DNA of 64,000 bases from an uncultured Candidatus Saccharibacteria bacterium (GTDB lineage Bacteria > Patescibacteriota > Andersenbacteria > UBA10190), in the NCBI GenBank assembly GCA_964359735.1, contig CAYHTZ010000002.1, forward strand, positions 22,937-86,936, written 5' to 3'. The notes under the pieces are model-generated. The model was given only the letters and a program-made list of their open reading frames with translations. It did not search any database and was not told the DNA's origin. The position numbers and the translations under genes are program-made. Below are positions 41,598 through 64,000 of the stretch, piece after piece. Position 1 is the first letter of the stretch. The number at the start of each line of letters is the position of its first letter.

Positions 41598-41635
41598 ATG
41601 GTGTAGTTATACCTCAGAGTTTGGTGCTTGACTAA

Positions 41636-46977: not shown

Positions 46978-47001
46978 GTGAGGGGTGTACACTCGGGGGA
47001 T

Positions 47002-48030
47002 ATGTGGCTCAGGCAGTTATCAGTTTTTCTTTTCCTGGCAGTAGGTGTCTGGGCTGGTTTGCGCATGGTGCGGACAGCCCTCTCGTCCACGTGCGTATCT
47101 CGGACCGTGTATGTGGCTCAGAAAGGAAGAGATCAAGAAGGGTACGGCTCAAGTAAAAAGCCGTACCAGACGATCGGGTATGCGCTCGCGCGGGCCACGC
47201 CGGGTACCACCATTGTGGTGAAGTCGGGAGTATACCCTGAACATCTTGTCACCACGCAGAACGGGGCACCTGGCTGCTCCATTACGCTGACTGGCTCGGC
47301 GAAGCTCACGGGAGGTGCAGAGAGCGGGCGCATCTTTGAGCTGATGCATGACTACTACGTTATTCGCGGCCTTGAGTTCACCGGCAAAGATGTCCTGTTG
47401 TGGATGCAGGAAGCTGACTACAACACCATCGAAAAAAATTTCTTTCACCATGCACAGGGGGAATGTGTACGGGCGAAGTACCACTCGAGCCACAATACGT
47501 TTGTAAGCAACAGAGTTGAGAATTGCGGAATAGCGGATTTTGTTCAAGGCGGCGGAGGGAAAAACGGTGAAGGTATTTACCTGGGCACCGCGCCTGAGCA
47601 GCTGAATAAAAATCCTACGCCAGAAACTGATCAAACCAGCTTTAACGTAGTCCGCTCGAACACGTTTGTAACGAACGGGAATGAGTGTGTGGATATTAAA
47701 GAGGGTTCAGCCAGTAATGCGGTGGAGTACAACGACTGCACGGGACAGCGTGATCCCGAAAGCGGCGGGTTTGATTCCCGGGGGAACGATAACGTTTTTC
47801 GCTACAACAAAAGTTATGGCAATGGGGGAGCGGGTATTCGCTTAGGGGGGGATGCCGGTACAGATGGCATTCGCAACGCGGTGTATGGCAATACGCTTGG
47901 TGATAATGGTGGCTACGCCTTGAAAGTTATGCGTCTGCCGCAAGGGTTGATTTGTGGGAATGCGGCTTCGGGTAATGCGCTTGGTTTCACGAACGAGCCC
48001 TCGGTCACGAATCCACCGTGCGCTTTTTAG
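47002..48030 (+). CDS. Right-handed parallel beta-helix repeat protein (pectate-lyase/NosD-like fold), secreted.
   Basis: Signal/TM N-terminus and periodic NxxFxxN/G-rich beta-helix-like repeats. The start was set to an internal Met. Confidence 0.45.
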   Translation: MWLRQLSVFLFLAVGVWAGLRMVRTALSSTCVSRTVYVAQKGRDQEGYGSSKKPYQTIGYALARATPGTTIVVKSGVYPEHLVTTQNGAPGCSITLTGSAKLTGGAESGRIFELMHDYYVIRGLEFTGKDVLLWMQEADYNTIEKNFFHHAQGECVRAKYHSSHNTFVSNRVENCGIADFVQGGGGKNGEGIYLGTAPEQLNKNPTPETDQTSFNVVRSNTFVTNGNECVDIKEGSASNAVEYNDCTGQRDPESGGFDSRGNDNVFRYNKSYGNGGAGIRLGGDAGTDGIRNAVYGNTLGDNGGYALKVMRLPQGLICGNAASGNALGFTNEPSVTNPPCAF

Positions 48031-49958: not shown

Positions 49959-51505
49959 TCGAATCCGACCACGACGAGCTGGCCGGCTCCTAGGGCTCCT
50001 TGTATGGGAGTGACCTCCACAAAACCTTGGGCAGACAAGCCAGTTTTCACCGTAACGTATTCTAGCGACCCATTCCTTTGTACCTGCACGCGCGAACTTC
50101 CATCGGCAGCGAGTGAGACGGCGCTCACGGGCACGGCCAACACTTCATGGTTGGTGGATTTGATGGGGATCGTGAGTCGAAGAGATGTGCCGGCAAGCTT
50201 CGTCGGTGTTTCATTCACGGTTACTTCCATATAGACGTGGAAGGCGTCAACGCCGTTTGTGCCGGGTGCTTCGGCAACGCGCGTGACAACGCCGGCGGCT
50301 TTGATCCCGAGATCAGCTTCGTCGATCTTTACCTCCATCTCTGGGTTCACGAGGGAGGCCTCGGCGAGTTGTAAGGAGGAGTCAATGACGATTTGGTTAC
50401 TGGCGACAGTGAGGGCTGGTCCCTTGGCTGCGGCACCAACAGTCGCGTCAGTCTTTTCGAGGCGGGCCGGCAAGGAGCTCACGAATATAACTTCGTCGGC
50501 AGGGACGGTGATACCCGTCTTACTTTGGACGCGGTGAAGGTCAGCAGTCAGGCGCTCGGCGAGAGCTTGGGCTACAGCGGCTTCGCGCCGAGCAATTTTT
50601 TGCGCATTTTGTGCGTTCAGTACGGTGAGCGCGCCTTCCCGCCGTGTGGTTTTGACGGTGCTTTGGGCGGCTTTCAGTTCCGCTTCCGCTTTGGCTCTAG
50701 CTTCACTGCTTGAGTTCACATCCTCGGCGATGGTTTGGTAGGCGATCGTTTTTGCGTCCACATCGACGGCCGCAGCGTTGTTCGTGGCAACGGCTTTGGC
50801 GCGGGTGGCTTCTAAGAGCTGGGAGGACCCGGCTACGTTGGCTGCCAGGTGATCTTTTTCGGCTACGGCTAGTTGTTCTGTTAATGTGGAGATCTCGGAC
50901 AGTTGCTGTGGCGTGGGCTCAAACGCTTCCCAACCTGATTTTCGGTACCAGGCCGCCACCGCGGCGGCGGTTTGGTAATCGTATCTGCCATCGGTCGCGC
51001 CTGGGTAAAACCCTAGTCGCTTTAATGCACCCTCGAGTTGGCGCACATCCTTGCCCGAGGTGCCGGGTGCCATGTCGCGGAAAGCAGGGGTGTCGCCCTC
51101 TAACACGAAAACGGGGCGCCCGGAAATAGTGAAGGCCACGTCGCCTTCACGGAATTCGGCGTTCGGCAATGGCAGGCTGGTGATGAAGGTTTCCAAAAGC
51201 TTGGCGGCCGAAGGGGGAATAGAAATAATTTGGGGCAGAGCGAAACGGGCGGTGCCGCGCGTGACGATGTCTGAGGTTAAGACACGCTTATCGATGGGAA
51301 CAAGAATGGGAGAGGCCGGTGGAGGTGAGGATTCGGCGGCAATTTGGGCGGGGGATTTAATGCGTGCACCAGCCAGATAGCTCAAGGCCGCTACGGCGAC
51401 GGTGGCCGCAATGAGAGCAACGAGGGTAGCGAGGCGTGGATTTTGGGTAGCCCAGGTTCTGGCGGTTGAAGGGATGAGGCGGGTCAGGGCGCGTTTCACA
51501 TGCAT
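49955..51505 (-). CDS. HlyD/MacA-like periplasmic adaptor with an inserted peptidoglycan-binding domain.
   Basis: N-terminal TM, coiled-coil and beta-barrel adaptor layout. LEGALKRLGFYPGATDGRYDYQTAAAVAAWYRKSGW is a PG_binding_1-like motif. ATGA overlap with the MacB-like gene. Confidence 0.65.
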   Translation of the reverse strand: MHVKRALTRLIPSTARTWATQNPRLATLVALIAATVAVAALSYLAGARIKSPAQIAAESSPPPASPILVPIDKRVLTSDIVTRGTARFALPQIISIPPSAAKLLETFITSLPLPNAEFREGDVAFTISGRPVFVLEGDTPAFRDMAPGTSGKDVRQLEGALKRLGFYPGATDGRYDYQTAAAVAAWYRKSGWEAFEPTPQQLSEISTLTEQLAVAEKDHLAANVAGSSQLLEATRAKAVATNNAAAVDVDAKTIAYQTIAEDVNSSSEARAKAEAELKAAQSTVKTTRREGALTVLNAQNAQKIARREAAVAQALAERLTADLHRVQSKTGITVPADEVIFVSSLPARLEKTDATVGAAAKGPALTVASNQIVIDSSLQLAEASLVNPEMEVKIDEADLGIKAAGVVTRVAEAPGTNGVDAFHVYMEVTVNETPTKLAGTSLRLTIPIKSTNHEVLAVPVSAVSLAADGSSRVQVQRNGSLEYVTVKTGLSAQGFVEVTPIQGALGAGQLVVVGFE

Positions 51506-51535
51506 AGCTCCGATGGTATTTCCACCTACTGCCTT

Positions 51536-52420
51536 TCAGTTTTGCGGCGCGCCGTAGAGTTCCGTCTCAACTTGTTTTACGGCTGGCTCAATAAATTCCT
51601 CCTCGCAGGCGAGATCGGCCACGGCAATAGCGCGCTCTTCTCCTTGCAGCTGCCGCAAGGCTTCGGCGTCAGCGCCAGTTGCCTTGAGGCGGTCGCGAAG
51701 CGCGGGTTCGATTTCTTCCGGGTTGTTGTAATTAAAACCGGCTTCGCGCATGCAGCTGGACCACTCCTCAGTGGCGGCAATCACACGCCGGTCCTGGGCG
51801 ATTAAGGCATCGCCTGGGTTAGCATAGGCGGGACGTAAGTCTTCGGGCCTAAATACCTGCTCGACGGCCGTGCGTGTGCAGCCACCGGTGGGCGAGAAGT
51901 CCTCAGCTTCAAGCGAGACGGCGAATGTGGATGCGGTATTTTCTCCGAAGAGCGCCCGGTTGTAGGCAGCCTGATCGGCGGCTGACAAGGTGGCGAAGAA
52001 ATCGACGTTCTGTTTACTAAGACCAATAGTAGCAGCGTGGTCAGCGCCGGATAGCTGTGGGGGAGTGTTGGGGGCAAGAGAGCGAGTGGAGATGCCATAG
52101 CCAAACTGCTCGCGAAATTCTTCATCGGTGAGTCCCGCAGCTTTTTTGTCGGCGTCCATAGATTTGCGCACGGTCAAGTAATCGACTGGAACGTACTGGA
52201 AGCCGGCCTGCTGCATGCAGCTCGCGATGACTGCTTCAGTAGCCTCGATCTTCTGCACCAGTTCGGCTTTCGTTAAGCCAAATTCTTCCGAGCCAGGCAA
52301 GCTCTCTGGGCTGGGTGAGGCGGAGGGAGTAGACTCGCGGCCGGGGCGGGTGGCAGCGAAATACAGGACCGCGGCGACGGCGATGACGAGAGCGGCCACT
52401 AGAAAAATCTTTGGCTGCAT
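51536..52420 (-). CDS. Hypothetical membrane-anchored or secreted protein.
   Basis: N-terminal hydrophobic helix, then an S/P-rich linker; no recognisable domain. Confidence 0.35.
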   Translation of the reverse strand: MQPKIFLVAALVIAVAAVLYFAATRPGRESTPSASPSPESLPGSEEFGLTKAELVQKIEATEAVIASCMQQAGFQYVPVDYLTVRKSMDADKKAAGLTDEEFREQFGYGISTRSLAPNTPPQLSGADHAATIGLSKQNVDFFATLSAADQAAYNRALFGENTASTFAVSLEAEDFSPTGGCTRTAVEQVFRPEDLRPAYANPGDALIAQDRRVIAATEEWSSCMREAGFNYNNPEEIEPALRDRLKATGADAEALRQLQGEERAIAVADLACEEEFIEPAVKQVETELYGAPQN

Positions 52421-52524
52421 AACTGTGTATAACTAGCATAAGTCACTTGGGTAGTCAACGATTACAGCCTGTGCTACTTTGTGCTCAGTCAGGAGGGGAC
52501 TACTTGTATTGAAAGTCACATCGT

Positions 52525-52980
52525 ATGAAAAGTAGCTCCACCTATCTTGTCATTATTATTCTGGTAGCGCTCGGGCTGGCGGGATTTTTTTTGTTTGATG
52601 GGGAGCAAGCACCTCCCTCGCCGGATAGTCGTAAGATTCATAGTGATGGTAAAGCGGCCCAGGTTACGCCAATTCCGGGTACCGATAGGAAGGCTATTCT
52701 GCTGACGGAGCGGGCGGTGCAGCGGCTTGACATTACCACAGTGCCAGTGACGAGCGGACACAGTTTGGTTGTACCCTACGCCGCCGTGATGTATGACACC
52801 GATGGCAGCACCTGGGTCTACACAAACCCGGAGCCTTTGCGGTATGTCCGCCACCACATTGAAGTAGACCGCATCGAGGGAGACCAAGCCATTCTGTCGG
52901 ATGGTCCTCCTATTGGCACGGCCGTGGTGACGAGGGGGGCGGCCGAGCTGTTCGGAGTTGAATTTGGTGTAGGTAAATGA
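52525..52980 (+). CDS. Small membrane-anchored protein resembling the C-terminal beta-barrel domain of RND membrane-fusion adaptors (mini-adaptor candidate).
   Basis: N-terminal TM plus a roughly 110 aa domain ending HHIEVDRIEGDQAILSDGPPIGTAVVTRGAAEL. Translationally coupled (ATGA) to the downstream RND gene. Confidence 0.35.
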   Translation: MKSSSTYLVIIILVALGLAGFFLFDGEQAPPSPDSRKIHSDGKAAQVTPIPGTDRKAILLTERAVQRLDITTVPVTSGHSLVVPYAAVMYDTDGSTWVYTNPEPLRYVRHHIEVDRIEGDQAILSDGPPIGTAVVTRGAAELFGVEFGVGK

Positions 52981-55900
52981 TGCGGGCAATTGTCGCGGTC
53001 AGCTTGAGGTGGCGCTGGCTCGTGGTGGCGGTCGCGGCGGTGGTGATGTTGTACAGCCTGGACACCGTTGCCGACATGCCTATCGATGTCTTTCCCGAAG
53101 TCGGCCCGCCCTTGGTGGAAGTTCAGACTGAGGCTTTGGGGCTCTCCGCCACCGAGGTGGAATCTTTGATTACTGTCCCCATGGAGGCGGATTTGCTCAA
53201 CGGCGTGGCGTGGCTTGACCGGATCTACTCTGAGTCGGTGAGCGGTCTCTCGTCGATTCACCTCATTTTTGAAGAGGGGACTGACCCAATTGCGGCCCGG
53301 CAGATGGTGGCGGAGCGCTTGACCCAGGCCTTCGCCTTGCCCAATGTGTCCAAACCGCCGACCATGCTTCAGCCTCTGTCCAGCAGCAATCGGGTCATGA
53401 TGATCGGGCTTTCTTCGCAGGAAGCGTCGTTGATAGACATGTCGGTGCTGGCTCGGTGGAATATCAGGCCGCGGCTCATGGGTGTGCCGGGGGTGGCCAA
53501 CGTGGCTATTTGGGGGGAGCGGCAGCGGCAATTGCAGGTGCAGGTTGACCCAGTGCAACTCTCGTCTGCCGGCGTGACACTGGCACAAGTTATCGAAACG
53601 GCCGGGAATGCCTTGTGGGTATCGCCTTTAAATTTTTTGAATGCTTCCACACCTGGTACAGCGGGGTGGATTGACACGCCGAATCAGCGGCTTGGACTCC
53701 ACCACATCTTGCCTATCAGAGGGCCGGATGAATTGGCTCGTGTGTCAGTGGCCGGCAGCCAGGGGTTGCTGCTCAAGGACGTGGCTCGCGTGGTGGAAGA
53801 CCACCAACCGCTGATTGGAGATGCCGCCGTGCGTGACGGCGCCGGTCTTTTGCTCGTCTTAGAAAAGTTTCCCGGGGCCAATACGGTGGAAGTGACGGAG
53901 GGTGTGGAAGAAGCGATGGCGGTGCTACGGTCAGGGATGGCCGGTATTGAGATGGAGACTGTCTTCCGACCGGCTAACTACATTGAGCTGGCGACTGACA
54001 AACTCGTGCAAGCGGCCCTCTTGGGCGCGGTGTTTATGGCCTTGGTGTTGTTTGCTTTTTTGGAAGGCTGGCGTCCAGTTGTCATTAGTCTCGTAGTGAT
54101 TCCCCTGTCTTTGGCGGTGGCGGGGCTGGTGCTGTACGCCTTCGGACTCACTATGAATGTCTTAACTGCCGCTGGGCTCACGGTGGCCATCGGTGCGGTA
54201 GCTTACGATGCCGTCTTCGACGTGGAAAACGTCGTGCGGCGGCTGCGACAGCGTCAGCAGACGGGCAGCGGGCAGACGTCTGTCTCCACCATTGCCGCGG
54301 CCGCGCTAGAGATGCGCCGGCCGGCGGTTCTGGCAACCCTGATCATGCTGCTGGCGGTGCTGCCGGCTTTCTTTTGGCGGGGTGAGGCGGCTGCCTTCAT
54401 TTGGCCTCTGGGCATGGCCTATGTGCTGGCGCTCTTAGCCTCGGCGGCGGTGGCATTCTTTGTCACGCCAGCACTCTCTCTTATACTCTGGCGTCAAGGA
54501 GTGTGGCTGCCCAGGGTGTCTCCACTCATTCATTGGCTTAGGCAGCGTTACCGAAGTGGGCTCTCCCGCCTCATTGGGATTCGGTGCCAAGTATCGGGCG
54601 CGGCGGTCGCCGTGGGGATAGCTGGTCTCGCGATGCTGCCATTACTCCATTGGTCGCTTCTGCCCTCGCTTCAGCAGACGGACCTGGTAGTTACCTGGCA
54701 AGCAGCGCCGGGCACGTCGCGTACAGAAATGAACCGGGTTTTAACGGCCGCCAGCGGTGAGCTCTCATCCGTTCCTGGGGTTGCGCGTGCTTCCTTCCAT
54801 GTGGGGCGAGCCATAACCGGGGATCAAGTTGTTGGGACTAACTCAGGCGTGCTTTGGCTTAGCCTTGATGGCAAGGCGGACTTTGATGCGACGGTGGAAA
54901 AGGTTCGAGAGGTTATTTCCGGCTACCCCGGCTTTACGAGTGAGGTGCAGACGTACCAACCTAAAAGAGATGGCGAGAGGTTGAGCGTGGGCGATCGTGA
55001 CCTGGTGGCGCGCGTGTACGGCCACGACTGGGATGTTCTCCAGGTAGTGGCTAAGGATGTGCAGCAGCGGCTGGCACACGTTAACGGTATCACGGCGGCA
55101 TACGTGGAGGTCGGTGACAACGAGCCACAGGTGGAAATCGAGGTGGATTTAGCTCAGGCTCTGCGCTACCAAGTAAAGCCTGGCGATGTCCGGCGGCAAG
55201 CGGCGGCGCTCCTGTCTGGCCTGCAAGTCGGCAACCTTTTTGAAGAACAAAAAGTGTTTGAGGTGGTGGTTTGGGGTGTACCGGAAATTCGCGATAATGT
55301 GACTAAGGTCCAAGACCTCTTGATTGACACGCCCGCGGGTTCAGTACGTTTGGGAGATCTGGCGAAGGTGAGGATTGGGTCGTCTCCGGTGACGATTGCC
55401 CGCGATGCGGTCTCGCGTTATGTAGACGTGGTTGCCCAGGTGGATGGCCGGGATGCAGCCGTGGTCAGACGCGAGGGGAGGCGCGCTCTTACTGGTCTTG
55501 AATTTCCTCTGGAATACCGCGCGGAACTATTAGGCGAAGGCGCCGGGCAGACGGCGGCGGTGCAGCGCGTACTGTTGGTGGGCCTGGCGGCTGGAGTTGG
55601 AATTTTTCTGCTGCTGCAGTCAGCCTTCGGGAGCGCCCGAGTGGCGGCTATCTTTGTCTTGAGCTTGCCCTTGGCGCTGTTGGGCGCCGTAGCGGTGGCG
55701 GTGGCTACGGAGGGTAGCGCTGTCTCACTTGGTTCACTGTTGGGGTTGTTGGCAGTGTTGGGGGTGGCGGTGAGAGGTGGAATGGTAATGATTGCCCATT
55801 GGCAGCATCTTGAGCGGGAGGCTGGCCAGGCAGCTGACGGCGCCCTGATTATGCAGGGAGGCCAAGAAAGGGTGATACCTATTTTGATGGGTGCCTTCAC

Positions 55901-56066
55901 GCTGGGACTGGCATTCTTGGCCCCGGCACTTTCCGGCGTTGTCCCCGGCTACGAAGTTCTCCATCCAATGGGCCTGGTGGTAGTAGGAGGGTTGGCGACC
56001 GCGACGCTCATGACTCTGTTTGGTCTGCCCGTGCTCTACCTGCAGTTTGCCGGCCAGAAGCCATGA
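52977..56066 (+). CDS. RND-superfamily efflux permease (CzcA/CusA-like).
   Basis: 12-TM RND topology with two large loops; N-terminal MPIDVFPEVGPPLVEVQTEALGLSATEVESLITVPME matches the HME-RND pattern. Confidence 0.8.
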   Translation: MMRAIVAVSLRWRWLVVAVAAVVMLYSLDTVADMPIDVFPEVGPPLVEVQTEALGLSATEVESLITVPMEADLLNGVAWLDRIYSESVSGLSSIHLIFEEGTDPIAARQMVAERLTQAFALPNVSKPPTMLQPLSSSNRVMMIGLSSQEASLIDMSVLARWNIRPRLMGVPGVANVAIWGERQRQLQVQVDPVQLSSAGVTLAQVIETAGNALWVSPLNFLNASTPGTAGWIDTPNQRLGLHHILPIRGPDELARVSVAGSQGLLLKDVARVVEDHQPLIGDAAVRDGAGLLLVLEKFPGANTVEVTEGVEEAMAVLRSGMAGIEMETVFRPANYIELATDKLVQAALLGAVFMALVLFAFLEGWRPVVISLVVIPLSLAVAGLVLYAFGLTMNVLTAAGLTVAIGAVAYDAVFDVENVVRRLRQRQQTGSGQTSVSTIAAAALEMRRPAVLATLIMLLAVLPAFFWRGEAAAFIWPLGMAYVLALLASAAVAFFVTPALSLILWRQGVWLPRVSPLIHWLRQRYRSGLSRLIGIRCQVSGAAVAVGIAGLAMLPLLHWSLLPSLQQTDLVVTWQAAPGTSRTEMNRVLTAASGELSSVPGVARASFHVGRAITGDQVVGTNSGVLWLSLDGKADFDATVEKVREVISGYPGFTSEVQTYQPKRDGERLSVGDRDLVARVYGHDWDVLQVVAKDVQQRLAHVNGITAAYVEVGDNEPQVEIEVDLAQALRYQVKPGDVRRQAAALLSGLQVGNLFEEQKVFEVVVWGVPEIRDNVTKVQDLLIDTPAGSVRLGDLAKVRIGSSPVTIARDAVSRYVDVVAQVDGRDAAVVRREGRRALTGLEFPLEYRAELLGEGAGQTAAVQRVLLVGLAAGVGIFLLLQSAFGSARVAAIFVLSLPLALLGAVAVAVATEGSAVSLGSLLGLLAVLGVAVRGGMVMIAHWQHLEREAGQAADGALIMQGGQERVIPILMGAFTLGLAFLAPALSGVVPGYEVLHPMGLVVVGGLATATLMTLFGLPVLYLQFAGQKP

Positions 56067-59000
56067 AGCCGAAGGTGCTCTCTTGGATCATTGAAAAGAG
56101 TCTCCACTACCGCTACCTGGTGATTTTTTTTACGGTGGTGTTGGTGGTCTTCGGCATCGGGAGGGTGCGGGCGATGCCGGTGGACGTTTTCCCTGAATTC
56201 GCGCCGCCGCGGGTGGAGATTCAGACCCCGAGCCTGGGACTTTCTTCCGCGGAAGTGGAGGCTCTGGTTACGACGCCATTAGAAGAAGTGATGAGCGGAA
56301 TGCCGGGGCTCGACATCATGCGCTCTAAATCAGTGGAGCAGTTGTCGTCGATTGTGCTGATTTTTAAGGCGGGGACTGATCTCATGGAAGCGCGGCAGCT
56401 GGTGGCCGAGAGAGTGGCGCAAGTCACGCCGACCTTGCCGACGTGGGCCGCCCCGCCGATGATGATGCCGCCTCTTTCGTCCACGGCCCGGACCATGAAG
56501 ATCGGGATTTCCTCGAAAAAACACTCTGTGATGGATCTGTCTATGATCACCTATTGGACGATCCGCGAACGCTTGCTACGTGTGCCAGGCGTGGCGAATG
56601 TGGCCATCTGGGGGGAGCAGATCAAAATGATGCAGGTGCAAGCGGATCCAGCGCGCTTGTCGGCGCAAGGGGTGACGATGGACGAAGTCTTGCAGGTCAC
56701 GTCGGACACCTTGGATTCAGGTTTGGTGCAGCATGCCAACGGTTCGACTGTCGGGAAAGGAGGGTTTCTCGAGACTCCTAATCAACAGCTTGGTATCCGG
56801 CACGTGTTACCCGTGGTGGCACCGGCTGATTTAGCCCGGGTACCTGTGAATGATCGGTTGAGGCGCGACGGCGCGCCGCTGCGCCTAGGGGATGTGGCGC
56901 AGGTGGTAGATGGTACCTGGCCGATGATTGGCGATGCAGTTATTAATGACGGCCCTGGACTTTTGTTGGTGGTGGAAAAGTTTCCGTGGGGCAACACGCT
57001 GGACGTAACGAGGGGAGTAGAAGCAGCCATCGACGAGATGCGGCCCGGGCTGCCCGATATCGACATTGACACCACTATTTTTCGGCCGGCGACGTTCGTG
57101 CAAGTGGCGCTGGATAATCTCATGACTTCGCTGCTCGTTGGAGCGGGACTGGTGGTACTGGTGTTGCTGCTGTTTCTCTGGGATTGGCGGATTGCACTCA
57201 TTTCCGCCACGATCATTCCGGTGACAGCGGTGGTCACCCTGCTTGTGCTCTCGCTGGTGGGGACAACGCTGAATGTAATGGTATTGGCTGGTCTCGTCAT
57301 CGCGCTGGGGGCGGTGGTTGACGATGCGATTGTGGATGTGGAAAACATCGTGCGGCGGCTGCGTCAGGCGCGCCGGCAAGGGAGTACCAAGGGAGCGGCG
57401 GCTATCATTCTCGATGCTTCCGTGGAAGTGCGTAGCGCTATTATCAGCGCGTCGTTGATCGAGATGACGGCGCTCCTGCCGGTTTTCTTTATGCAGGGGC
57501 TGTCCGGAGCATTTTTCCGGCCGCTGGCCCTGGCCTACGTGGTGGCCACACTGGTCTCTCCGCTCATCGCGCTCACTGTCACGCCGGCGCTGATCTTAGT
57601 TCTTCTGTCTCGGGCGTCGGTCGTTGATCGCTTGTCCCCCATCATCCCACGGCTCCACCGCATATATAATGGACTGCTGTCGTGGACGATTAGAACACCG
57701 CGTCTGGCATATGTCGTCACCAGCATTCTCCTGGTCGCCGGTATCGTGATATGGCCGCTCTTGGGACAGGAACTGCTGCCCTCGTTTAAGGAACGGGATT
57801 TCCTCATGCACTGGGTAGCCAAGCCCGGCACATCTCATCCGGAAATGGTGCGTATGACAACGGCGGCTTGTCGAGAGCTGCGCAGCATTCCGGGGGTGCG
57901 CAACTGCGGCTCCCATATTGGGCAGGCGCTCCTGATGGATGAAGTGTACGGCATCTATTTTGCCGAGAATTGGATCAGTGTGGATCCGGCGGTAGACTAT
58001 GACGCGACCCTGGCCAACATTCAGGAGACCGTCGACGGCTATCCCGGGCTGGTGCGCGATGTGCAAACGTATCTCAAGGAGCGCATCCGCGAGGTACTCA
58101 CTGGGTCGAGCCATCCTATCGTCATCAAGATCTACGGGCAGGATCTGGCCGTGCTGCGAGAGCTGGCGGGGCAGGTGCGGGACAAACTGGCGGAGATTGC
58201 CGGCATCACGGATGAAAAAGTGGAGCTTTTGGTTGATATCCCGCAGGTAGAGGTCGAGGTGGACTTGGCGGCCGCGCAGAGATTCGGCTTAAAACCGGGT
58301 GACGTCCGTCGGCAGGCCGCCTACGTGGTAGCGGGTGAGGAAGCCGGTGATATTCACACAGCCAACAGGACATTCGATGTCCAAGTATGGAGCACGCCGG
58401 AGGCGCGGAGTAACCTCACGAGTATTCAGGGTATGCTCGTCAGCACGCCCAGCGGGAAGACGGTGCGTTTAGCTGATGTGGCTGACGTGCGCATCGCGCC
58501 GGTGCCGAATGCCGTCAATCATGAAAATCTCTCGCGCCGCATAACCGTTGAAGCTGAAGTTGAGGGGCGTGACCTCGGCGCGGTGGTGGATGATGTTGAA
58601 GACGCTCTGGAGAACATTGCGTTCCCGCGGGGATATCACCCGGAGGTGTCCGGCGAGTACGCGGAACGGCAGGCGGCGCAGACGCGTATCTTAATGGCGG
58701 GGGTGGCCGCAGCGCTCGTGATTTTCTTACTGCTGTGGGCGTCGCTTCAGAGTTGGAGGTTGGCCGCGATGTCCTTCTTGAGTTTGCCGATGGCCTTGGT
58801 AGGTGGCGCGCTGGCGGCGTATTTTGCCAGCGACGGCGTTTTGTCGCTCGGTTCACTCGTCGGGATGCTCACGATCTTAGGGGTGGCGGCGCGCAACGGT
58901 ATTATGCTGATCAGTCACTTTCAGCACCTCGAGCATGAGGAAGGCCAATCTTTTGGCCCGGCGCTGGTTTTGCAGGGAGCACGGGAACGCCTGGTGCCGA

Positions 59001-59188
59001 TCGTAATGACGGCGCTCACGGCTGGGCTCGCCTTAGTACCGCTGGTGGTGGCCGGCAACATTCCCGGGCATGAGATTGAGCACCCAATGGCGATTGTCAT
59101 TCTCGGAGGGCTTATCACCTCAACTCTGGTCAACTTGTTCGTTGTGCCGTCGCTCTACTTGCGGTTTGGAAAGGCCGTAGTATCGTGA
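56063..59188 (+). CDS. RND-superfamily efflux permease, tandem paralog of the preceding gene.
   Basis: Same architecture; MPVDVFPEFAPPRVEIQTPSLGLSSAEVEALVTTPLEE. ATGA overlap with the upstream paralog. Confidence 0.8.
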   Translation: MKPKVLSWIIEKSLHYRYLVIFFTVVLVVFGIGRVRAMPVDVFPEFAPPRVEIQTPSLGLSSAEVEALVTTPLEEVMSGMPGLDIMRSKSVEQLSSIVLIFKAGTDLMEARQLVAERVAQVTPTLPTWAAPPMMMPPLSSTARTMKIGISSKKHSVMDLSMITYWTIRERLLRVPGVANVAIWGEQIKMMQVQADPARLSAQGVTMDEVLQVTSDTLDSGLVQHANGSTVGKGGFLETPNQQLGIRHVLPVVAPADLARVPVNDRLRRDGAPLRLGDVAQVVDGTWPMIGDAVINDGPGLLLVVEKFPWGNTLDVTRGVEAAIDEMRPGLPDIDIDTTIFRPATFVQVALDNLMTSLLVGAGLVVLVLLLFLWDWRIALISATIIPVTAVVTLLVLSLVGTTLNVMVLAGLVIALGAVVDDAIVDVENIVRRLRQARRQGSTKGAAAIILDASVEVRSAIISASLIEMTALLPVFFMQGLSGAFFRPLALAYVVATLVSPLIALTVTPALILVLLSRASVVDRLSPIIPRLHRIYNGLLSWTIRTPRLAYVVTSILLVAGIVIWPLLGQELLPSFKERDFLMHWVAKPGTSHPEMVRMTTAACRELRSIPGVRNCGSHIGQALLMDEVYGIYFAENWISVDPAVDYDATLANIQETVDGYPGLVRDVQTYLKERIREVLTGSSHPIVIKIYGQDLAVLRELAGQVRDKLAEIAGITDEKVELLVDIPQVEVEVDLAAAQRFGLKPGDVRRQAAYVVAGEEAGDIHTANRTFDVQVWSTPEARSNLTSIQGMLVSTPSGKTVRLADVADVRIAPVPNAVNHENLSRRITVEAEVEGRDLGAVVDDVEDALENIAFPRGYHPEVSGEYAERQAAQTRILMAGVAAALVIFLLLWASLQSWRLAAMSFLSLPMALVGGALAAYFASDGVLSLGSLVGMLTILGVAARNGIMLISHFQHLEHEEGQSFGPALVLQGARERLVPIVMTALTAGLALVPLVVAGNIPGHEIEHPMAIVILGGLITSTLVNLFVVPSLYLRFGKAVVS

Positions 59189-59189
59189 C

Positions 59190-60089
59190 ATGATGTTTAC
59201 GCGTCTGCAGCTTGTCTTGGGGCTAGTGGTAGTGGTCTTGCTGGCGGTGGGAATAGTCCGTCGGTACCTGCCGGTGGCGGCGACGCTACCGCAAGAATCG
59301 GCGGTGGCCGAGAGCAGCGAGCGCGAAGGCGAGCAAGATTTTCTTGAACTCGACCCGAGCGATTTTGATGACGCGACGTCGGCCTCTATTACCAATGAAT
59401 GGTGGCCGCTCAAACCTGGCACGCGCTGGATACACGAGGGATTTTCTGTCGAGGATGGCGAGAGAACCCGTCACATGGTAGTGGAAACAGTCACAGATCT
59501 CACCAAAGAAATTAACGGGGTGAAGGCGGCCGTGAACTTGGAGGAGGACTACAGTGATGGCAAATTGATCGAACGAGAAATTGCCTTTCACGCGCAGGAT
59601 AATGATGGAAATGTGTGGCATTTGGGGCAGTTACGCGAAACATACGATGAGGCAGAATTTGTCGGGGGCCGCGTCTGGTTTGTTGGTCAGCCTTCCGGCG
59701 CTAAGGCTGGTATTCGGATGTGGGCGGATCCGCGCCTGGGAGACAGTGCTTCACAAGGGTACGCACCTGCTCCTTTCAATTGGACAGACAGTGGACGGGT
59801 GTCTCAGGTGGGTCAACATACCACGGTGGTGGCGGGCGAATACGACGATGTGATCGTGGTGGAAGAGTGGGACGCAGAAACGCCGCCAGGTGTTTTCCAG
59901 ACTAAATACTACGCCCGTGGTGTGGGGATCGTGCGGATTGGTTTTACAGGTGAAGATCCTGAACAAGAGGAAATGGAGCTGGTCAAGCTGGAGCAGCTCG
60001 CCGGCCCGGCTCTCACGGAGGCGCGAGAGGCGGCGCTAGCAATTGAGGAGCGAGCCTACGTGTACGGCCTGACCAAACCGGCGGAGTAA
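59190..60089 (+). CDS. Hypothetical membrane-anchored or secreted protein.
   Basis: N-terminal TM helix; no recognisable domain. Confidence 0.35.
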   Translation: MMFTRLQLVLGLVVVVLLAVGIVRRYLPVAATLPQESAVAESSEREGEQDFLELDPSDFDDATSASITNEWWPLKPGTRWIHEGFSVEDGERTRHMVVETVTDLTKEINGVKAAVNLEEDYSDGKLIEREIAFHAQDNDGNVWHLGQLRETYDEAEFVGGRVWFVGQPSGAKAGIRMWADPRLGDSASQGYAPAPFNWTDSGRVSQVGQHTTVVAGEYDDVIVVEEWDAETPPGVFQTKYYARGVGIVRIGFTGEDPEQEEMELVKLEQLAGPALTEAREAALAIEERAYVYGLTKPAE

Positions 60090-60150
60090 GGCTTGCACAG
60101 CGAGAAGGCTTCTTCTAGACTTAACAGGATATGAAAGGGGGTGACGACCT

Positions 60151-60723
60151 ATGTCGTTAAAGACATTAGCTAGTGGAGGGCTGGCTTTCGTATTACTCCT
60201 AGGGGTAGTAGCAGTCGTCGCTCCAGTGGCCAGTGCGTCGCACCTTTCTGACCCGACTCGGTGTACGTGTTCGGCGGGCCTTTCGTACGATAGGCCTAGT
60301 TTGCAGTGGGGCAGCGAAGGATTAGTGTTTGTCCCCCGGATAAACTATTCAATTCGTGCCCGCGGCGGGAACGAGGCGCCACCTTTGAACGTGTCTGTCA
60401 ATTATGAGGGTGGCAGCTCCTACGAATCAGAAGATGTAGCCGTGCCGGCAGAGACCAGCTTTAGTGGACAGAAGCAGCTGCTTACAAATGCTACCTGCCG
60501 CGGCAGTCAGCGGTATAGCTTTAGCGGTTTTGCCTTGGAACCTGTGACGCTGGCGGGGCTGGTGCAATCGCTGATCGGGGAGGATCAACAGTTAAAAGGA
60601 ACCATTCAGATGAGGGCGTCAATTGAGGGCTGTGGATTCGAAGAGGAGAATCGACAGTTCTCCTTCAGGGTACGTGATCAGTTTGGTGAGTTACGCTGGC
60701 TTGGCTGGCGCAGCGCTCGTTAG
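60151..60723 (+). CDS. Hypothetical secreted protein.
   Basis: Signal peptide MSLKTLASGGLAFVLLLGVVAVVAPVASA. Confidence 0.35.
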   Translation: MSLKTLASGGLAFVLLLGVVAVVAPVASASHLSDPTRCTCSAGLSYDRPSLQWGSEGLVFVPRINYSIRARGGNEAPPLNVSVNYEGGSSYESEDVAVPAETSFSGQKQLLTNATCRGSQRYSFSGFALEPVTLAGLVQSLIGEDQQLKGTIQMRASIEGCGFEEENRQFSFRVRDQFGELRWLGWRSAR

Positions 60724-60732
60724 TCGCACAGG

Positions 60733-60756
60733 TTATCCACATCAGGGTGTGGATAA
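60733..60756. promoter_or_regulatory. Inverted pair of perfect DnaA boxes about 50 kb from dnaA.
   Basis: gTTATCCACA-tcagggtg-TGTGGATAAc: 10-bp inverted arms. Confidence 0.45.
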
Positions 60757-60990
60757 CATGCCTTGCGGCTGGAGGAGTGTTTGGGCTACCAAGATATGAG
60801 GCCAAAAAACCGTGTTTTTAGGGGGCCTGCCTGATGGCAGACAGGAAGGGACTAAATAACACGACTCGTGTAGTGGGCCTCTTGGTTCAGGGAGGGGAAC
60901 TGAAATCAGGAGAGACATAACGAAGCGTGTTTTTTTGTTGACTCAAAACACAATGATGAAAACTCAATTCAGGAGAGGAGGTGAGTACAG

Positions 60991-62118
60991 ATGAAGACAA
61001 AACTTAGCTTATTGCTGGGTATCTCTGCACTCGCCTTCTTGTTTTCTGTCACCCCAGTGCTGGCATCAGAGGTGAACTTTGATCAGAGCATTGAGAACAG
61101 CGGTCCTTCTTCGAGCACCAACAACGATGGTGATGCTAAGGAGGATGTTGATATTGATAAGGAGGTCAAGGCTGATATTGATAACAAAGGCGATGTTGAT
61201 TGCAAGACCGGCGAATTCGACGTGAAGAACAACACCAACGCTGAAGTTGATGACAGCGGAGCCTGCAACGTTGAAGCTGACTGGCAAACAGCTGTCAACG
61301 GAGGAACCTCTCTGTGGGAGTCAGCTGATGGCGGTCTCGATGTTAACGTGGATCAGAGTATTGAGGACAGCGGTCCTAACTCGAGCACCAACAACGACGC
61401 TGACGTCAAGAAAGACGTGAACGTGGACCTGGATCTCATTGCTGACATCCTGAACAAGCTGGACGCAGACCTTGCGACCGGCGACTTCGACGTGAGGGAC
61501 AACACCAACGCTGAAATCGGCGGATCTGGTGATGCTTCACTCGCGGTCATGTTCGAAACATGGGCCAACAACGATGCGGGCTGGTCCGGTGCTGCCCACG
61601 GGGGCGTATCGGTCACGGCTGACCAGAGCATCAAGGACAGCGGTCCTAACTCGAGCACCAACAACGACCTCGACGTCAAGTCTGAGGTTGATTGGGATGT
61701 TGAGTGGAAAGCCGACGTTGACAACAAGGTTGACGTGAATGCCAAGACCGGCGAATTCGACGTGAAGAACAACACCAACGCTGAAGTTGGCGGGTCAGGC
61801 GACGTAGACGTTGCGGTTGAGCTCTTCACTTCCGTCAATAATGGCGGCGGTGCAAGTGCAGCCAATGGCAGTGGTCTCGACGTTAACGTGGATCAGAGTA
61901 TTGAGGACAGCGGTCCTAACTCGAGCACGAACAACGACGTTGACGTCAAGCAAGACGTGGACGTGAAAGAGGAGAGAAAGGCTGACGTTGACAACAACGT
62001 TGAGGTGGATGCCAACACGGGCGTATTCGACGTGAAGGACAACACCAACGCTGAAGTTGGCGGGTCAGGCGACGTGAACATTCAGTTGAACATTTCAACT
62101 GAGGCCAACAACGGCTAG
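60991..62118 (+). CDS. Secreted Asp/Asn-rich protein built from four tandem roughly 90 aa repeats.
   Basis: Signal peptide; repeated DQSIEDSGPNSSTNND...DV(D/N)...TGEFDVKNNTNAEVGGSGD units. Confidence 0.5.
   Translation: MKTKLSLLLGISALAFLFSVTPVLASEVNFDQSIENSGPSSSTNNDGDAKEDVDIDKEVKADIDNKGDVDCKTGEFDVKNNTNAEVDDSGACNVEADWQTAVNGGTSLWESADGGLDVNVDQSIEDSGPNSSTNNDADVKKDVNVDLDLIADILNKLDADLATGDFDVRDNTNAEIGGSGDASLAVMFETWANNDAGWSGAAHGGVSVTADQSIKDSGPNSSTNNDLDVKSEVDWDVEWKADVDNKVDVNAKTGEFDVKNNTNAEVGGSGDVDVAVELFTSVNNGGGASAANGSGLDVNVDQSIEDSGPNSSTNNDVDVKQDVDVKEERKADVDNNVEVDANTGVFDVKDNTNAEVGGSGDVNIQLNISTEANNG
61066..62118 (+). repeat. About 270-bp tandem DNA repeat times four, with a 540-bp super-period in which alternate units are near-identical.
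   Basis: Near-identical 70 to 80-mers at 61336 and 61876; an identical 43-mer at 61207 and 61747; related units at 61066, 61477, 61606 and 62017. Confidence 0.6.
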
Positions 62119-62255
62119 TTCATAGTTGACCCTCGATGAGGGAAAGGTAAGGCGCCCTTCGAGAAGACTCAGGGTAAACTTGCCTTTCTCCATGGGGGGA
62201 TTAATAGTAGCCAGTTGCGCATATGAGTATTTTTGTTCGGGTACGTCAGCACTAC

Positions 62256-64000
62256 ATGAAGAAAGGGGCGGTTTTGCTTTTGGTGAGCTGGATGAGTTTG
62301 CTCGCCCCTGCGGTTGCACTTGCCCAAGACGCTGTCGATGCAGAGGGCAATCCCACGGGGCCAACGGAGCCTACGGGGGCCACAGGGCCAACAGGGCCGA
62401 CCGAGCCTACCGGGCCAACAGGGCCCACGGGCCCAAGTTGTGTGGGAACGGCATGTCCAGTAGAGGCCGCCAGTGAGTCCGAGGTTAGTGCCGAGAACAG
62501 CAACACCGGTCCGGATTCAACGAACACTTCTGAGACTCAGGTAGACAGTTCAACCTCCACGAGCAAGTCGAACACGGTGGATGACACAACGAATGCAACG
62601 GCGACAGGGACGACGGGAGGAAGCACTGCTAGCGATAATACGGCTACGAATGGGATTACCACGGGGAATGTCGGAGTTGGGGCAACGGTGGTTACGCAGG
62701 ACAATACCGCCTTGGTGAATGGGACAGCTGGGTTAGAAGTGGATGGCTATAAGGGTGATTATACGGGTGACTACACAGTCGGCTTCGGGGCGGGAACGGC
62801 TGACCTGTCCGACGGTGGCTCGTACAGCGCGATTAACGGTACGACGGGACAGAACTCAACGAATACGGCCGACTTAGAAGCTATCGTGAGAAGGTTCATT
62901 GAGGTGGAGAACGACGGCACAATTGAGAAGAACCTGAAATTCGTGGGGAATTCTGGTGATAATACGGCTACTAATAACACCAGCGATGCGCCCATTACGA
63001 CGGGAAATGTAGACTTAGCTGCGACCGTGGTCAACTTGCTCAACACCAATGTCATTAATGGAACGTTGATGATATCGGTCGCTGATTTCTTCGGTAACCT
63101 CATAGGTAATATTGTGCTTCCTGATTTGGCGGCCTTGGCGGCGGCATATCTGCCAGCAACTTCACCGGTCATTGAGCTTGGCAATGAGAACACCGGCCCG
63201 AACTCAACGAATACGGCCACGGTGGATTGGAAGGAGAAAGAGAAGACGAGTGTGGAGAATGATGCTCTTGTCACCACCAACGCCACCGCAGATTTAAATA
63301 CCGGTGAGAACAAAGCCGACTTGAATACGGGCGGTGGATTTGTGGACTCAGGAGATGCCAGTGCCTCACTAACGAATGTTTCTGTGGTCAACACAACAGT
63401 GGAAGGGGGCGTTTATTTCCTCGGACTCATTAATGCGTTTAATGGATTCTTTGGTGTCCTCTTCGGCCAAAATGGGGATGTGCGACTGCTCTCTCAAGAT
63501 GAGACGCTCGACATGCTGGCGAAGAATGTAAACACAGGCGAGGGTTCGGACAATAAAGCCTACGTCTCCTATGAAGAAGAAACGACTACCACCGTGGAGA
63601 ACGATGCTAAGATTACGAATAATTTGTACTTCGACGGAAACTCAGGGGGAAACACAGCCAGTAGTAATACGGGTGCAGGTACAGTCAACACAGGGAATGT
63701 CCGAGCCCAGGGCACGACCGTCAATTTTGCGAATACCACGGTGAAGGATGCCGCGCTCTTTGTGTCGGTGATCAACATCTTCGGTGATTGGTTCGGTGAC
63801 CTCTTGTATGGTGGAACGTCGCTCTTGGCCTCGGCTCGCCCGGCTAGCTCAGGGCAAGCGGTGAATGCGGAGGCAACGAATCAGAATACTGGACCGGAAT
63901 CTGAGAATATCGCGGAAGTAAATGTGGATCGCACTCAGAAAACCACTGTTGATAACGATGCTCGCCTCCGGGCGAACCTCACGGGGAATCTAAACACGGG
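62256..64000 (+). CDS. Large secreted repetitive protein: an N-terminal collagen-like GxT triplet tract, then repeated Thr/Asn/Gly-rich modules. It is 3'-truncated by the window end and absent from the ORF track because there is no stop within the window.
   Basis: Signal peptide MKKGAVLLLVSWMSLLAPAVALA. GPTEPTGATGPTGPTEPTGPTGPTGP. Recurring NTGP(D/N)STNT...TTGNV...ATVVN modules. Manual translation shows no in-frame stop to nt 64000. Confidence 0.55.
   Translation, partial: MKKGAVLLLVSWMSLLAPAVALAQDAVDAEGNPTGPTEPTGATGPTGPTEPTGPTGPTGPSCVGTACPVEAASESEVSAENSNTGPDSTNTSETQVDSSTSTSKSNTVDDTTNATATGTTGGSTASDNTATNGITTGNVGVGATVVTQDNTALVNGTAGLEVDGYKGDYTGDYTVGFGAGTADLSDGGSYSAINGTTGQNSTNTADLEAIVRRFIEVENDGTIEKNLKFVGNSGDNTATNNTSDAPITTGNVDLAATVVNLLNTNVINGTLMISVADFFGNLIGNIVLPDLAALAAAYLPATSPVIELGNENTGPNSTNTATVDWKEKEKTSVENDALVTTNATADLNTGENKADLNTGGGFVDSGDASASLTNVSVVNTTVEGGVYFLGLINAFNGFFGVLFGQNGDVRLLSQDETLDMLAKNVNTGEGSDNKAYVSYEEETTTTVENDAKITNNLYFDGNSGGNTASSNTGAGTVNTGNVRAQGTTVNFANTTVKDAALFVSVINIFGDWFGDLLYGGTSLLASARPASSGQAVNAEATNQNTGPESENIAEVNVDRTQKTTVDNDARLRANLTGNLNT
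62352..62441 (+). repeat. 9-bp tandem repeat encoding the collagen-like (G-P/E/A-T)n tract.
   Basis: ggg cca acg / gag cct acg / ggg gcc aca... about 10 units. Confidence 0.6.

Follow-up and report, generated by a model that had tools for sequence, protein, structure and literature searches.

Genes A and B encode paralogous, secreted repeat proteins at the core of a predicted cell-surface gene cluster of Patescibacteria

Genes A and B are adjacent loci in the window (the whole 64,000 nucleotide stretch of DNA analyzed here) and encode secreted repeat proteins which, on comparison of their sequences, are paralogues. As judged from sequence, the two genes make up the conserved core of an unnamed cell-surface gene cluster that is widespread in the ultra-small Patescibacteria (CPR), and are therefore candidate parts of an envelope-building or host-attachment structure. 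The A and B proteins probably act jointly, as surface-anchored beta-solenoid proteins of a multi-subunit assembly. This is considered the most likely interpretation because of the constant adjacency of A and B, together with the presence of an LPxTG paralogue and a sortase in the Microgenomates loci.

Much of bacterial diversity is accounted for by Patescibacteria, of which the cultivated ones live attached to other microbes. Their envelope and host-attachment proteins are mostly unknown. The papers searched point to type IV pili, a few lectin-like proteins and a type IV secretion system, and one of them reports that no PrgB-type adhesins were found in Patescibacteria.

Genes A and B in the window

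The coordinates of the two genes and their parts are in Table 1. A protein identical to that encoded by gene A is present in the databases (P0095). The ORF, its signal peptide and the exact 270-nt spacing of four 90-aa units agree with the earlier note, which had described a secreted product of four 270-bp units. The motif SGP(S/N)SSTN is present in every unit, at residues 37, 127, 217 and 307. Asp makes up 16% and Asn 12.6% of the mature protein, which has 78 acidic vs 21 basic residues, in keeping with the Asp/Asn-rich units that had been described. Contrary to what had also been claimed, the units are not near-identical. Pairwise identities are 58–73% for DNA and 47–61% for protein, and Tandem Repeats Finder detects no 270-nt array. 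The longest exact repeat within the gene is 47 nt and is common to units 1 and 3 (at 61203 and 61743); units 2 and 4 have a common 60-nt tract that is 97% identical. A proposed A-B-A'-B' pattern of units is not cleanly present, the closest pairs at the DNA level being 3/4 (0.73) and 2/4 (0.71).

Table 1. Features of the A-B region; coordinates are positions in the window
Feature	Coordinates	Strand	Description
p190	60151-60723	+	secreted 190-aa protein upstream of A; conserved member of the Andersenbacteria-type cluster
Shine-Dalgarno-like AGGAGAGGAGGTGA	60971-60984	+	7 nt 5′ of gene A start; read from sequence
Gene A	60991-62118	+	375-aa ORF; secreted, very acidic, no membrane anchor
A signal peptide, residues 1-25	60991-61065	+	Sec-type, MKTKLSLLLGISALAFLFSVTPVLA/SE (cleavage at slash), by inspection
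A unit 1, residues 31-120	61081-61350	+	repeat register
A unit 2, residues 121-210	61351-61620	+	repeat register
A unit 3, residues 211-300	61621-61890	+	repeat register
A unit 4, residues 301-375	61891-62115	+	C-terminally shortened; repeat register
Gene B, 5′ 60%	62256-64000	+	581 codons in window; stop-free translation from ATG
B signal peptide	62256-62324	+	MKKGAVLLLVSWMSLLAPAVALA/QD (cleavage at slash), by inspection
B spacer, residues 31-61	62346-62438	+	low-complexity Gly/Pro/Thr; 9-nt periodicity at 62352-62436 (Tandem Repeats Finder, period 9)
B Cys-x-G-x-x-Cys motif	62439-62456	+	CVGTAC, conserved, directly after spacer; orthologue consensus CxGAGC
B module 1, residues 78-190	62487-62825	+	core repeat + extension
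B module 2, residues 191-306	62826-63173	+	core repeat + hydrophobic extension (NGTLMISVADFFGNLIGNIVLP)
B module 3, residues 307-420	63174-63515	+	module register
B module 4, residues 421-538	63516-63869	+	module register
B module 5	63870-64000	+	cut by window end; module register

Gene B is absent from the list of ORFs only because that list leaves out any ORF still open at the window end. Its frame is open from the ATG at 62256 to the end of the window; an alternative start is at 62223 and an in-frame stop codon lies upstream at 62208. The translation and the Tandem Repeats Finder output are in accord with the suggestion that B starts with a signal peptide and a 9-bp-periodic tract and continues past 64000. 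The end of the window corresponds to residue 580 of the 972 residues of the B orthologue P0001. About 380 residues of B are thus expected beyond the window, and these should include a C-terminal linker, a membrane helix and a basic tail.

The modules of B are approximately 115 aa long and are marked by TG-x-x-S-x-N at residues 84, 197, 313, 427 and 545. The at least five Thr/Asn/Gly-rich modules that had been noted are therefore present, the fifth being cut by the window end, and the composition of the in-window part (Thr 15%, Gly 12%, Asn 11.5%) is in keeping with this. The description of near-perfect DNA repeats does not apply to B, as the modules have a protein identity of just 28–40% and DNA repeats are at most 27 nt. 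Of the B homologues found (n = 94), the best has 56% identity over 100% of the query; proteins of the family are ~950–1,020 aa in length and the orthologues align module by module.

Promoter and terminator scans between A and B show no signal on the + strand. N-x-S/T sequons are not enriched and therefore give no pointer to N-glycosylation. An Rfam search of 59000–64000 gives one sub-threshold match inside the coding region, which is taken as chance.

The repeat common to A and B

The earlier note had pointed to a motif present in both genes, and profile comparisons show that this reflects true homology. Alignment of an A unit with a B module by hhalign gives 69 columns in register (E = 1e-5). 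Profile matches are reciprocal, with the A profile matching B at E = 1e-38 and the B profile matching A at E = 2e-18. The A units and B modules have a common core repeat of ~70 aa with conserved Asn, Gly and Thr positions, its consensus being [ST]G-x-x-S-x-N ... N-x-A-x-V-x-N ... TG-x-N ... NT-x-x-G ... TG-D/N.

Neither Pfam nor NCBIfam has a model for this core. Pfam searches of A and B yield nothing but a sub-threshold RibLong match (21.5 bits vs a cut-off of 27), NCBIfam searches just a meaningless ClfB match (E = 0.34), and PADLOC and PHROGs searches no match. A description of this repeat family was not found in literature searches. The family is previously unnamed and unannotated.

Predicted fold

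A beta-solenoid of stacked repeats is the predicted fold. The AlphaFold model of A, which is based on a shallow alignment of 12 sequences, is all-beta with a pLDDT of 80.6. The model of the B orthologue P0001, from a similarly shallow alignment of 43 sequences, has module cores with a pLDDT of 85–96, disordered linkers at residues 29–80 and 853–939, and a terminal helix at 942–971. The structural matches of models from the A/B family are to generic beta-helices and solenoids only, with weak scores. These models and matches fit an earlier guess of beta-solenoid modules. Foldseek shows no significant match in the PDB, and searches of PDB sequences with the A and B profiles are empty. Beta_helix and related Pfam models (the pectin-lyase-like right-handed beta-helix superfamily) do not match A or B. 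The likeness to the SufB/SufD right-handed beta-helix (PDB 5awf, 1vh4, 9h78) is one of fold type only; SufB and SufD function in iron-sulfur assembly in the cytoplasm, the identity is 4–10% and only part of each model aligns.

Anchoring signals and sortase

Most of the full-length B-family members listed have a C-terminal hydrophobic helix that is followed by basic residues. The sequence RFPVAG is conserved just upstream of this helix in most of the closest B orthologues. In Andersenbacteria-type loci it is ~15 residues before the helix and is unlike the canonical LPXTG signal. Because the C-terminus of B itself is outside of the window, its anchor is predicted from the orthologues.

In Microgenomates a third paralogue has at its C-terminus LPATG, LPQTG or LPVTG, followed by a membrane helix and RLRSGRSP. 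This paralogue displays all three features of a sortase substrate, i.e. an LPXTG-like motif, a hydrophobic segment and a basic tail. The B orthologues display the hydrophobic segment and basic tail, with RFPVAG in place of LPXTG, and A has no cell-wall sorting signal. A sortase gene adjoins the A-B cluster in 14 of 26 genome loci. None is found within 8 kb in the Andersenbacteria-type loci, nor in the 64-kb window.

Gene neighborhood and distribution

Gene B is directly 3′ of gene A in all 23 informative genome loci, i.e. those with enough downstream sequence, and all of these are from Patescibacteria. Two gene orders are found. The Andersenbacteria type (L001, L010-L017 and the window) has p190, A, B and the 300-aa gene p300 in this order, with an S8 peptidase gene often coming next. 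The Microgenomates type (12 loci) has A, B, the LPxTG third paralogue and the sortase. The p190 protein is 43% identical to that encoded at the same position in L001, and its profile matches the gene that immediately precedes A in L001, L010-L012 and L014-L017; Pfam, NCBIfam, PADLOC and PHROGs give no match for it.

With the A profile, 3,197 cluster representatives are recovered at E <= 1e-3, and 615 at the stricter E <= 1e-30. Among the best 150 of the 3,197, most have a length of ~395–440 aa and align with the four-unit profile over its whole length. All named members of the family are from Patescibacteria.

Other genes are found near the operon. Genes for a TasA-like Peptidase_M73 protein and for a SipW-like peptidase are nearby in several lineages and in this window; in L001 the SipW-like peptidase carries a copy of the repeat. 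Elsewhere in the window, positions 45931–46977 encode a true RTX protein (HemolysinCabind, E = 2.9e-21) and the gene at 46978–48030 matches a Beta_helix-type Pfam model. A functional link of A and B to the upstream RND efflux genes was considered and dropped, since the adjacency of these genes to A is not conserved, RND genes being absent from the orthologous loci. Membership of a type IV secretion locus was also dropped; a VirD4-like ATPase gene is present 5–9 kb downstream but is confined to the Andersenbacteria-type loci, and orphan VirD4-like coupling proteins have been reported as common in Patescibacteria.

Alternative interpretations

The earlier note had likened the tract in B to the collagen-like filaments of BclA in the exosporium, in which case the GPT tract would trimerize into a triple helix carrying the distal modules. 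As in BclA and Scl1/Scl2, the signal peptide of B is followed by a short tract of Gly/Pro/Thr triplets. The 9-nt periodicity, a few database matches with a Pfam Collagen domain that align to the tract (over only 5–9% of the query) and the eight uninterrupted Gly-X-Y triplets of orthologue P0008 are in favor of a filament. However the tract reads NPT GPT EPT GAT GPT GPT EPT GPT GPT GPS, and because Glu twice occupies the Gly position the longest Gly-X-Y run is just 3 triplets, where proteins of the BclA/Scl type typically have tens of uninterrupted triplets. Pfam Collagen (PF01391) has no match in B even at E <= 1. The tract is also not conserved, as the orthologue runs vary from 1 to 8 triplets and in more distant orthologues it gives way to TGAP or QGxxQG repeats, and in the P0001 model the corresponding region is predicted to be disordered (pLDDT ~33). 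The rest of B has no BclA-like C-terminal domain, and the source organism is a Patescibacterium, a group in which spore formation is not known. A collagen-like filament is thus largely refuted and is extremely improbable. Only slightly less so is the proposal that A and B act as contingency loci, with surface (antigenic or phage-receptor) variation arising as inter-repeat recombination alters the number of units. Each A unit of the window resembles its sister units (0.53–0.69) more than it does the corresponding unit in the nearest homologue (0.41–0.49), and DNA identity between the units is patchy, reaching the 97% and 47-nt exact matches given above. Together these suggest past gene conversion, which likely took place between A units with no change of unit number. 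The unit number is fixed, close A orthologues all being 371–378 aa with four units, as are also found in most of the best 150 matches. Across A orthologues, similarity is higher between units that occupy the same position (0.573) than between those that do not (0.465), and the divergence of the B modules and the shortness of their DNA repeats argue against recombinational variation in that gene. Metagenome contigs do break inside A, but at a coverage of ~2.9x. A units 1–3 are not an assembly artifact, three independent assemblies agreeing exactly over them; the two besides the window are from the same groundwater well and reproduce 58835–61803 and 59938–61388 with 100% identity.

There is a small chance that the S-layer lattice of this bacterium consists of A and B. 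One study has predicted S-layer proteins in Patescibacteria that are Ig-like, with three to six domains, and form a hexagonal lattice, and reports that their homologues are numerous and highly expressed across the phylum (bioRxiv 10.1101/2024.05.28.596244). As described, these are of a different fold and family, whereas the A/B models match beta-helical and solenoid structures only. It is equally improbable that A serves chiefly in the binding of cations or minerals, with Asp-rich solenoid faces that chelate Ca2+ or other metals or bind mineral or ice, as in RTX proteins and antifreeze solenoids, and with a functional significance of the RND adjacency. Binding of divalent cations by the acidic A protein is plausible in view of its composition. 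However the GGxGxD nonapeptide (HemolysinCabind) has no match in A or B, the orthologous clusters adjoin other secreted-protein genes rather than RND genes, and cation binding leaves the obligatory pairing with B unexplained. It is nevertheless compatible with a joint surface assembly of A and B and does not exclude it.

A model of the proposed surface assembly

In the favored interpretation, that of a multi-subunit surface assembly, both A and B would be exported via their Sec signal peptides. B would be the large subunit, with a flexible Gly/Pro/Thr spacer and then some seven or eight modules that each combine a core repeat with a hydrophobic extension. By analogy with the orthologues its C-terminal part would be a disordered linker leading to a membrane helix and a basic tail that hold it on the cell. 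A would be the small, free and strongly acidic subunit of four units. The anchored B, and the third paralogue where present, may hold or template the secreted A by contacts between like repeats. From gene adjacency alone, we infer a physical interaction of A with B. The assembly may have the role of an adhesin, a fibril or an envelope scaffold.

Sortase-anchored beta-helical adhesins such as PfbA of Streptococcus pneumoniae (PDB 3zpp) and the binding region of the Lactobacillus reuteri serine-rich repeat protein (PDB 5nxk) have a comparable layout of signal peptide, beta-helical extracellular region and C-terminal sorting/anchoring signal. The Microgenomates-type operon, with its adjacent sortase and the canonical LPxTG on the third paralogue, is also similar to Gram-positive sortase-anchored adhesins. 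There is no sequence relationship however, the predicted A/B solenoid being built from a distinct ~70-aa repeat. In addition the cluster encodes two or three paralogues together, and in the lineage of the window B would have a membrane helix with RFPVAG and no LPXTG, while A is anchorless.

The functional amyloids (curli CsgA/CsgB, Pseudomonas FapC/FapB, and Bacillus TasA/TapA with the signal peptidase SipW) likewise have a small, secreted subunit of imperfect repeats that is predicted to form a beta-solenoid and whose gene adjoins that of a related paralogue bound to the cell. The nearby TasA-like Peptidase_M73 and SipW-like peptidase genes are a further likeness to the TasA/TapA-SipW system. 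A and B differ from these in having no Curlin, Fap or TasA signature, and the structural scores are weak and generic. In monoderm bacteria such as these, partners for secretion across an outer membrane would not be expected. By analogy with CsgB/CsgA or TapA/TasA, it is conceivable, although doubtful, that A, B and the LPxTG paralogue (where present) form a Patescibacteria-specific surface fiber of beta-solenoids stacked end to end, an envelope or host-attachment organelle in which the anchored subunits nucleate polymerization of the secreted A. Such a fiber may be functionally tied to the neighboring TasA-like and SipW-like genes. If it exists, it would represent a new class of sortase-linked, amyloid-like appendage of episymbiotic bacteria.

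Significance

A family of ~3,200 cluster representatives with a fixed architecture and a conserved, sortase-linked operon provides concrete candidates for a phylum-wide surface structure. The candidate genes can be tested in genetically tractable Saccharibacteria and by cryo-tomography. New family models are justified, and these would give names to thousands of 'hypothetical proteins'.

Gene A and gene B

The A protein is preceded by a strong Shine-Dalgarno-like sequence at the nucleotide level and displays, by inspection, a Sec-type signal peptide at the N-terminus. Its four units, each with the motif SGP(S/N)SSTN, had been described in the earlier note as near-identical and arranged in an A-B-A'-B' pattern. 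The number of copies and their exact spacing stand, but over the full 270 nt the units show only 58–73% DNA identity and 47–61% protein identity. The most similar pairs are units 3/4 and 2/4, thus there is no clean A-B-A'-B' pattern. Nor are the DNA repeats near-perfect, as the longest exact repeat is 47 nt in A and at most 27 nt in B, and Tandem Repeats Finder does not detect a 270-nt array in A. The A protein is very acidic (78 Asp+Glu vs 21 Lys+Arg) with alternating D-V-D-V strands, and an RTX motif was not found in it. The cation binding proposed for these units may occur and does not conflict with the model given below.

Features of the A-B locus and its surroundings in the window
Feature	Position (nt)	Strand	Remarks
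CAP family protein	40551–41597	-	
GT2 glycosyltransferase	41636–43558		
TasA/camelysin-like gene and SipW-like gene	43840–45934		Peptidase_M73, E 1.4e-13; SipW-like signal peptidase directly follows, fused to a lamin-tail domain
RTX calcium-binding repeat protein	45931–46977		
Beta_helix protein	46978–48030		
Transporter block	48027–59188		MacB-type ABC transporter (-), peptidoglycan-binding-domain protein, two tandem AcrB/CzcA-type RND transporters (1,029 and 1,041 aa)
p190 (190-aa secreted protein)	60151–60723	+	
Hairpin	60731–60757		GGUUAUCCACA...UGUGGAUAAC; no T-run
Gene A	60991–62118	+	clean ORF, 375 aa
Gene A unit starts	61081, 61351, 61621, 61891	+	repeat search, spacing exactly 270 nt
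Gene B	62256 to past 64000	+	open from ATG through the window end; alternative start 62223, in-frame stop upstream at 62208
Gene B 9-nt-periodic tract	62352–62436	+	

From its N-terminal end, B consists of a signal peptide, the 9-nt-periodic tract, a CVGTAC motif and five modules of about 115 aa with the marker TG-x-x-S-x-N, the fifth of which is truncated at the window end; a signal peptide and at least five modules had been noted earlier. The modules are mutually 28–40% identical. The window ends at the equivalent of residue 580 in P0001, the closest full-length homologue (972 aa, 56% identical to B), and about 380 residues of B probably lie beyond it, their content being taken from orthologues.

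Kinship of A and B

Alignment of the four A units with four B modules by hhalign places 69 columns in register (probability 82%, E 1e-5), and profiles built from orthologues cross-match, with E 1e-38 for the A profile on B and E 2e-18 for the B profile on A. The motif reported as common to both proteins is thereby borne out, and A and B are by these comparisons paralogues built on one core repeat of about 70 residues. The B modules carry about 45 extra residues rich in hydrophobic and aromatic amino acids, e.g. NGTLMISVADFFGNLIGNIVLP.

No curated family in Pfam, NCBIfam, PADLOC or PHROGs covers either protein. Pfam gives a sub-threshold RibLong match alone, NCBIfam a meaningless ClfB match alone, and PADLOC and PHROGs give nothing. 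PDB sequence searches with the A and B profiles were empty, and the family is not mentioned in the accessible papers on Patescibacterial envelopes and type IV secretion.

Predicted structure

The AlphaFold2 model of A (12 homologues) is all-beta, with a mean pLDDT of 80.6 and a pTM of 0.68. P0001, modelled with 43 sequences, displays module cores of pLDDT 85–96, a disordered N-terminal spacer at positions 29–80 (pLDDT about 33), a disordered C-terminal linker at 853–939 and a terminal helix at 942–971. The models resemble generic beta-helices and solenoids only, among them TBCC/CAP, curli CsgA, RTX blocks, a Ca2+-dependent antifreeze protein, "putative adhesin" beta-helices and the S-layer protein RsaA. 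Foldseek gives no significant match; the best is the FapC amyloid (E 0.054), and TM-scores are 0.07 or lower. The predicted fold class is thus a beta-solenoid, no solved structure being closely related, and the predicted all-beta models agree with the beta-solenoid modules proposed earlier.

Relatives and operon layouts

A collection of 5.8 billion proteins contains 94 B homologues. The closest 40 or so are mostly 940–1,015 aa, the named ones being from Candidatus Andersenbacteria or Parcubacteria, and distant ones of about 600–850 aa are found in Gottesmanbacteria, Saccharimonadia and Berkelbacteria. Close A orthologues are 375–377 aa. The A profile matches 3,197 of 1.84 billion cluster representatives at E <= 1e-3 (1,994 at E <= 1e-10 and 615 at E <= 1e-30); the best 150 of the 3,197 are mostly 395–440 aa and align over the whole of the four-unit profile in a single stretch. 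The few matches with a name are Parcubacterial and annotated as "hypothetical protein".

A scan of one genome per species yielded 26 loci, which were compared by ORF calling and by search with the profiles built here. Most carry Patescibacterial names (Andersen-, Levy-, Roizman-, Davies-, Curtiss- and Woykebacteria), and among the automated assemblies several bear the label "uncultured Gammaproteobacteria" (one "Pseudomonadales") or "Saccharibacteria" and show the same operon. The proteobacterial labels (L019, L023, L025, L026, L028, L030, L036, and L029, the "Pseudomonadales" assembly, which ends after A) are probably wrong, because the same operon, of the typical Microgenomates type, is present in those assemblies, some on contigs of 330–760 kb.

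A B-type gene lies directly 3′ of the A-type gene on the same strand in all 23 loci with enough downstream sequence. The Andersenbacteria type (the window, L001 and L010–L017) has the order p190, A (371–378 aa), B (954–1,021 aa), a 300-aa membrane-anchored protein and often an S8 peptidase, followed further downstream by a 160-aa protein, a VirD4/TraG-like ATPase and a DUF3048 protein; there is no sortase within 8 kb. The Microgenomates type (12 loci) has the order A (397–458 aa), B (710–779 aa), a third paralogue (343–412 aa) and a sortase (164–209 aa). The third paralogue ends in LPATG, LPQTG or LPVTG, then a hydrophobic helix and RLRSGRSP, which by its sequence is a canonical sortase sorting signal. 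B of this type ends in an INLAWLLL-type helix with basic residues, and A has no helix at its end, its tail being acidic, hydrophobic and FDFDFSFDLSDLLDWL-like. In L008 and L034, the loci of the Berkelbacteria type, there are two A-like genes, of which one has FFPAG and a helix at its end, followed by B, with two flanking sortases and a downstream S8 peptidase.

Among the matches listed, most full-length B-family proteins have a hydrophobic helix at the C-terminus with a basic tail after it. In most of the closest B orthologues of the Andersenbacteria type, a conserved RFPVAG also precedes the helix by about 15 residues; this could be a sorting motif in variant form, as it is similar to the FFPAG of the Berkelbacteria protein whose gene is flanked by sortases.

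In the Levybacteria locus L020 the B-type gene (9364–11516) is split into ORFs of 342 and 354 aa, which reflects either a frameshift or pseudogene, or an assembly error in a repetitive gene. The VirD4/TraG-like coupling-protein ATPase (L001, 14586–16151; L003, 8383–10878; L010, 19413–21899) lies 5–9 kb downstream of B in Andersenbacteria-type loci, always after the 160-aa protein, which is membrane-anchored, and before the DUF3048 protein; long forms have DUF8128. A 2025 survey places most Patescibacterial VirD4 homologues far from virB4 (PMC12102498).

Wider neighbourhood

Genes for secreted proteins form an island at positions 40551–48030 of the window. Their equivalents in L010 directly adjoin p190-A-B; in the window the two halves of the island are kept apart by other genes over about 12 kb, among them the transporter block, which is absent from orthologous loci. 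For a bacterium presumed to have a single membrane, RND pumps seem out of place.

In the Andersenbacteria loci L001, L010 and L011 and the Levybacteria loci L024, L027 and L032 the TasA-like and SipW-like pair lies no more than a few kb from the A-B operon, and this recurrence suggests that the pair and the operon are a linked extracellular-fibre or matrix gene set. In L001 a SipW-like signal peptidase (5177–6259, - strand) itself carries a C-terminal A/B core repeat at about residues 280–356 (A profile E 1e-16).

The hairpin is strong and lies just 3′ of the p190 stop codon, and the whole p190-A intergenic region (267 nt) folds a little more stably than shuffled sequences (z = -2.07). The independent contig L005 (1626–1627), from the same well as the assemblies described below, lacks 36 nt of the region 5′ of A (window 60829–60864), with 6 mismatches in the 235 nt after the gap. 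This looks like strain-level variation in a putative regulatory region.

Stability of the repeats and the GPT tract

Positions 58835–61803 and 59938–61388 recur at 100% identity in independent assemblies of the same groundwater well (Hainich H51), therefore the repeat layout of A is not an assembly artefact. Recombinational length variation had been expected. Across deep divergence A keeps its four units and B the order of its modules, therefore the number of units is constrained and not variable. The A units of the window are closer to their sister units (0.53–0.69) than to the orthologous unit of the nearest homologue (0.41–0.49), eight A orthologues give 0.573 for same-position vs 0.465 for different-position units, and inter-unit DNA identity is patchy, up to 97% over 60 nt. 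There is a signal of concerted evolution among the units, and occasional gene conversion without a change in copy number best explains the pattern.

A collagen-like filament of the BclA type had been proposed from the tract of B. The tract reads NPT GPT EPT GAT GPT GPT EPT GPT GPT GPS, so the longest Gly-X-Y run is three triplets. Such runs vary from 1 to 8 triplets in orthologues, distant orthologues have other low-complexity repeats, Pfam Collagen does not match B, and the region is predicted to be disordered in the orthologue model. The filament was rejected on these grounds, and the tract is read as a flexible spacer.

Possible function

A and B are two exported paralogues with one repeat, a fixed architecture and obligatory adjacency across the phylum. 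Anchoring signals are present in B orthologues and the third paralogue, with sortase linkage in many lineages. In the proposed mechanism stacked repeats would make up rigid solenoid rods, a flexible linker would hold B (and, in loci that have it, the third paralogue) at the membrane or wall, and A, which has no anchor, would join them through like-with-like repeat contacts to give a surface assembly.

An adhesin, a fibril and an envelope layer are candidates for this assembly. PrgB-type adhesins were not detected in the phylum in one paper on Patescibacterial envelopes and type IV secretion. The reading of A and B as an S-layer is weakened, since the Patescibacterial S-layer proteins predicted in one preprint, reported as highly expressed, are Ig-like with three to six domains (bioRxiv 10.1101/2024.05.28.596244).

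The genes, units, motif and modules of the earlier note are thus retained without the near-perfect repeats, and its secreted beta-solenoid repeat proteins remain the predicted form without the collagen filament or length variation. The A-B pair would belong, on the predicted fold, with known anchored beta-solenoid surface proteins, and it forms the core of a surface-protein operon that is widespread in Patescibacteria and unannotated.
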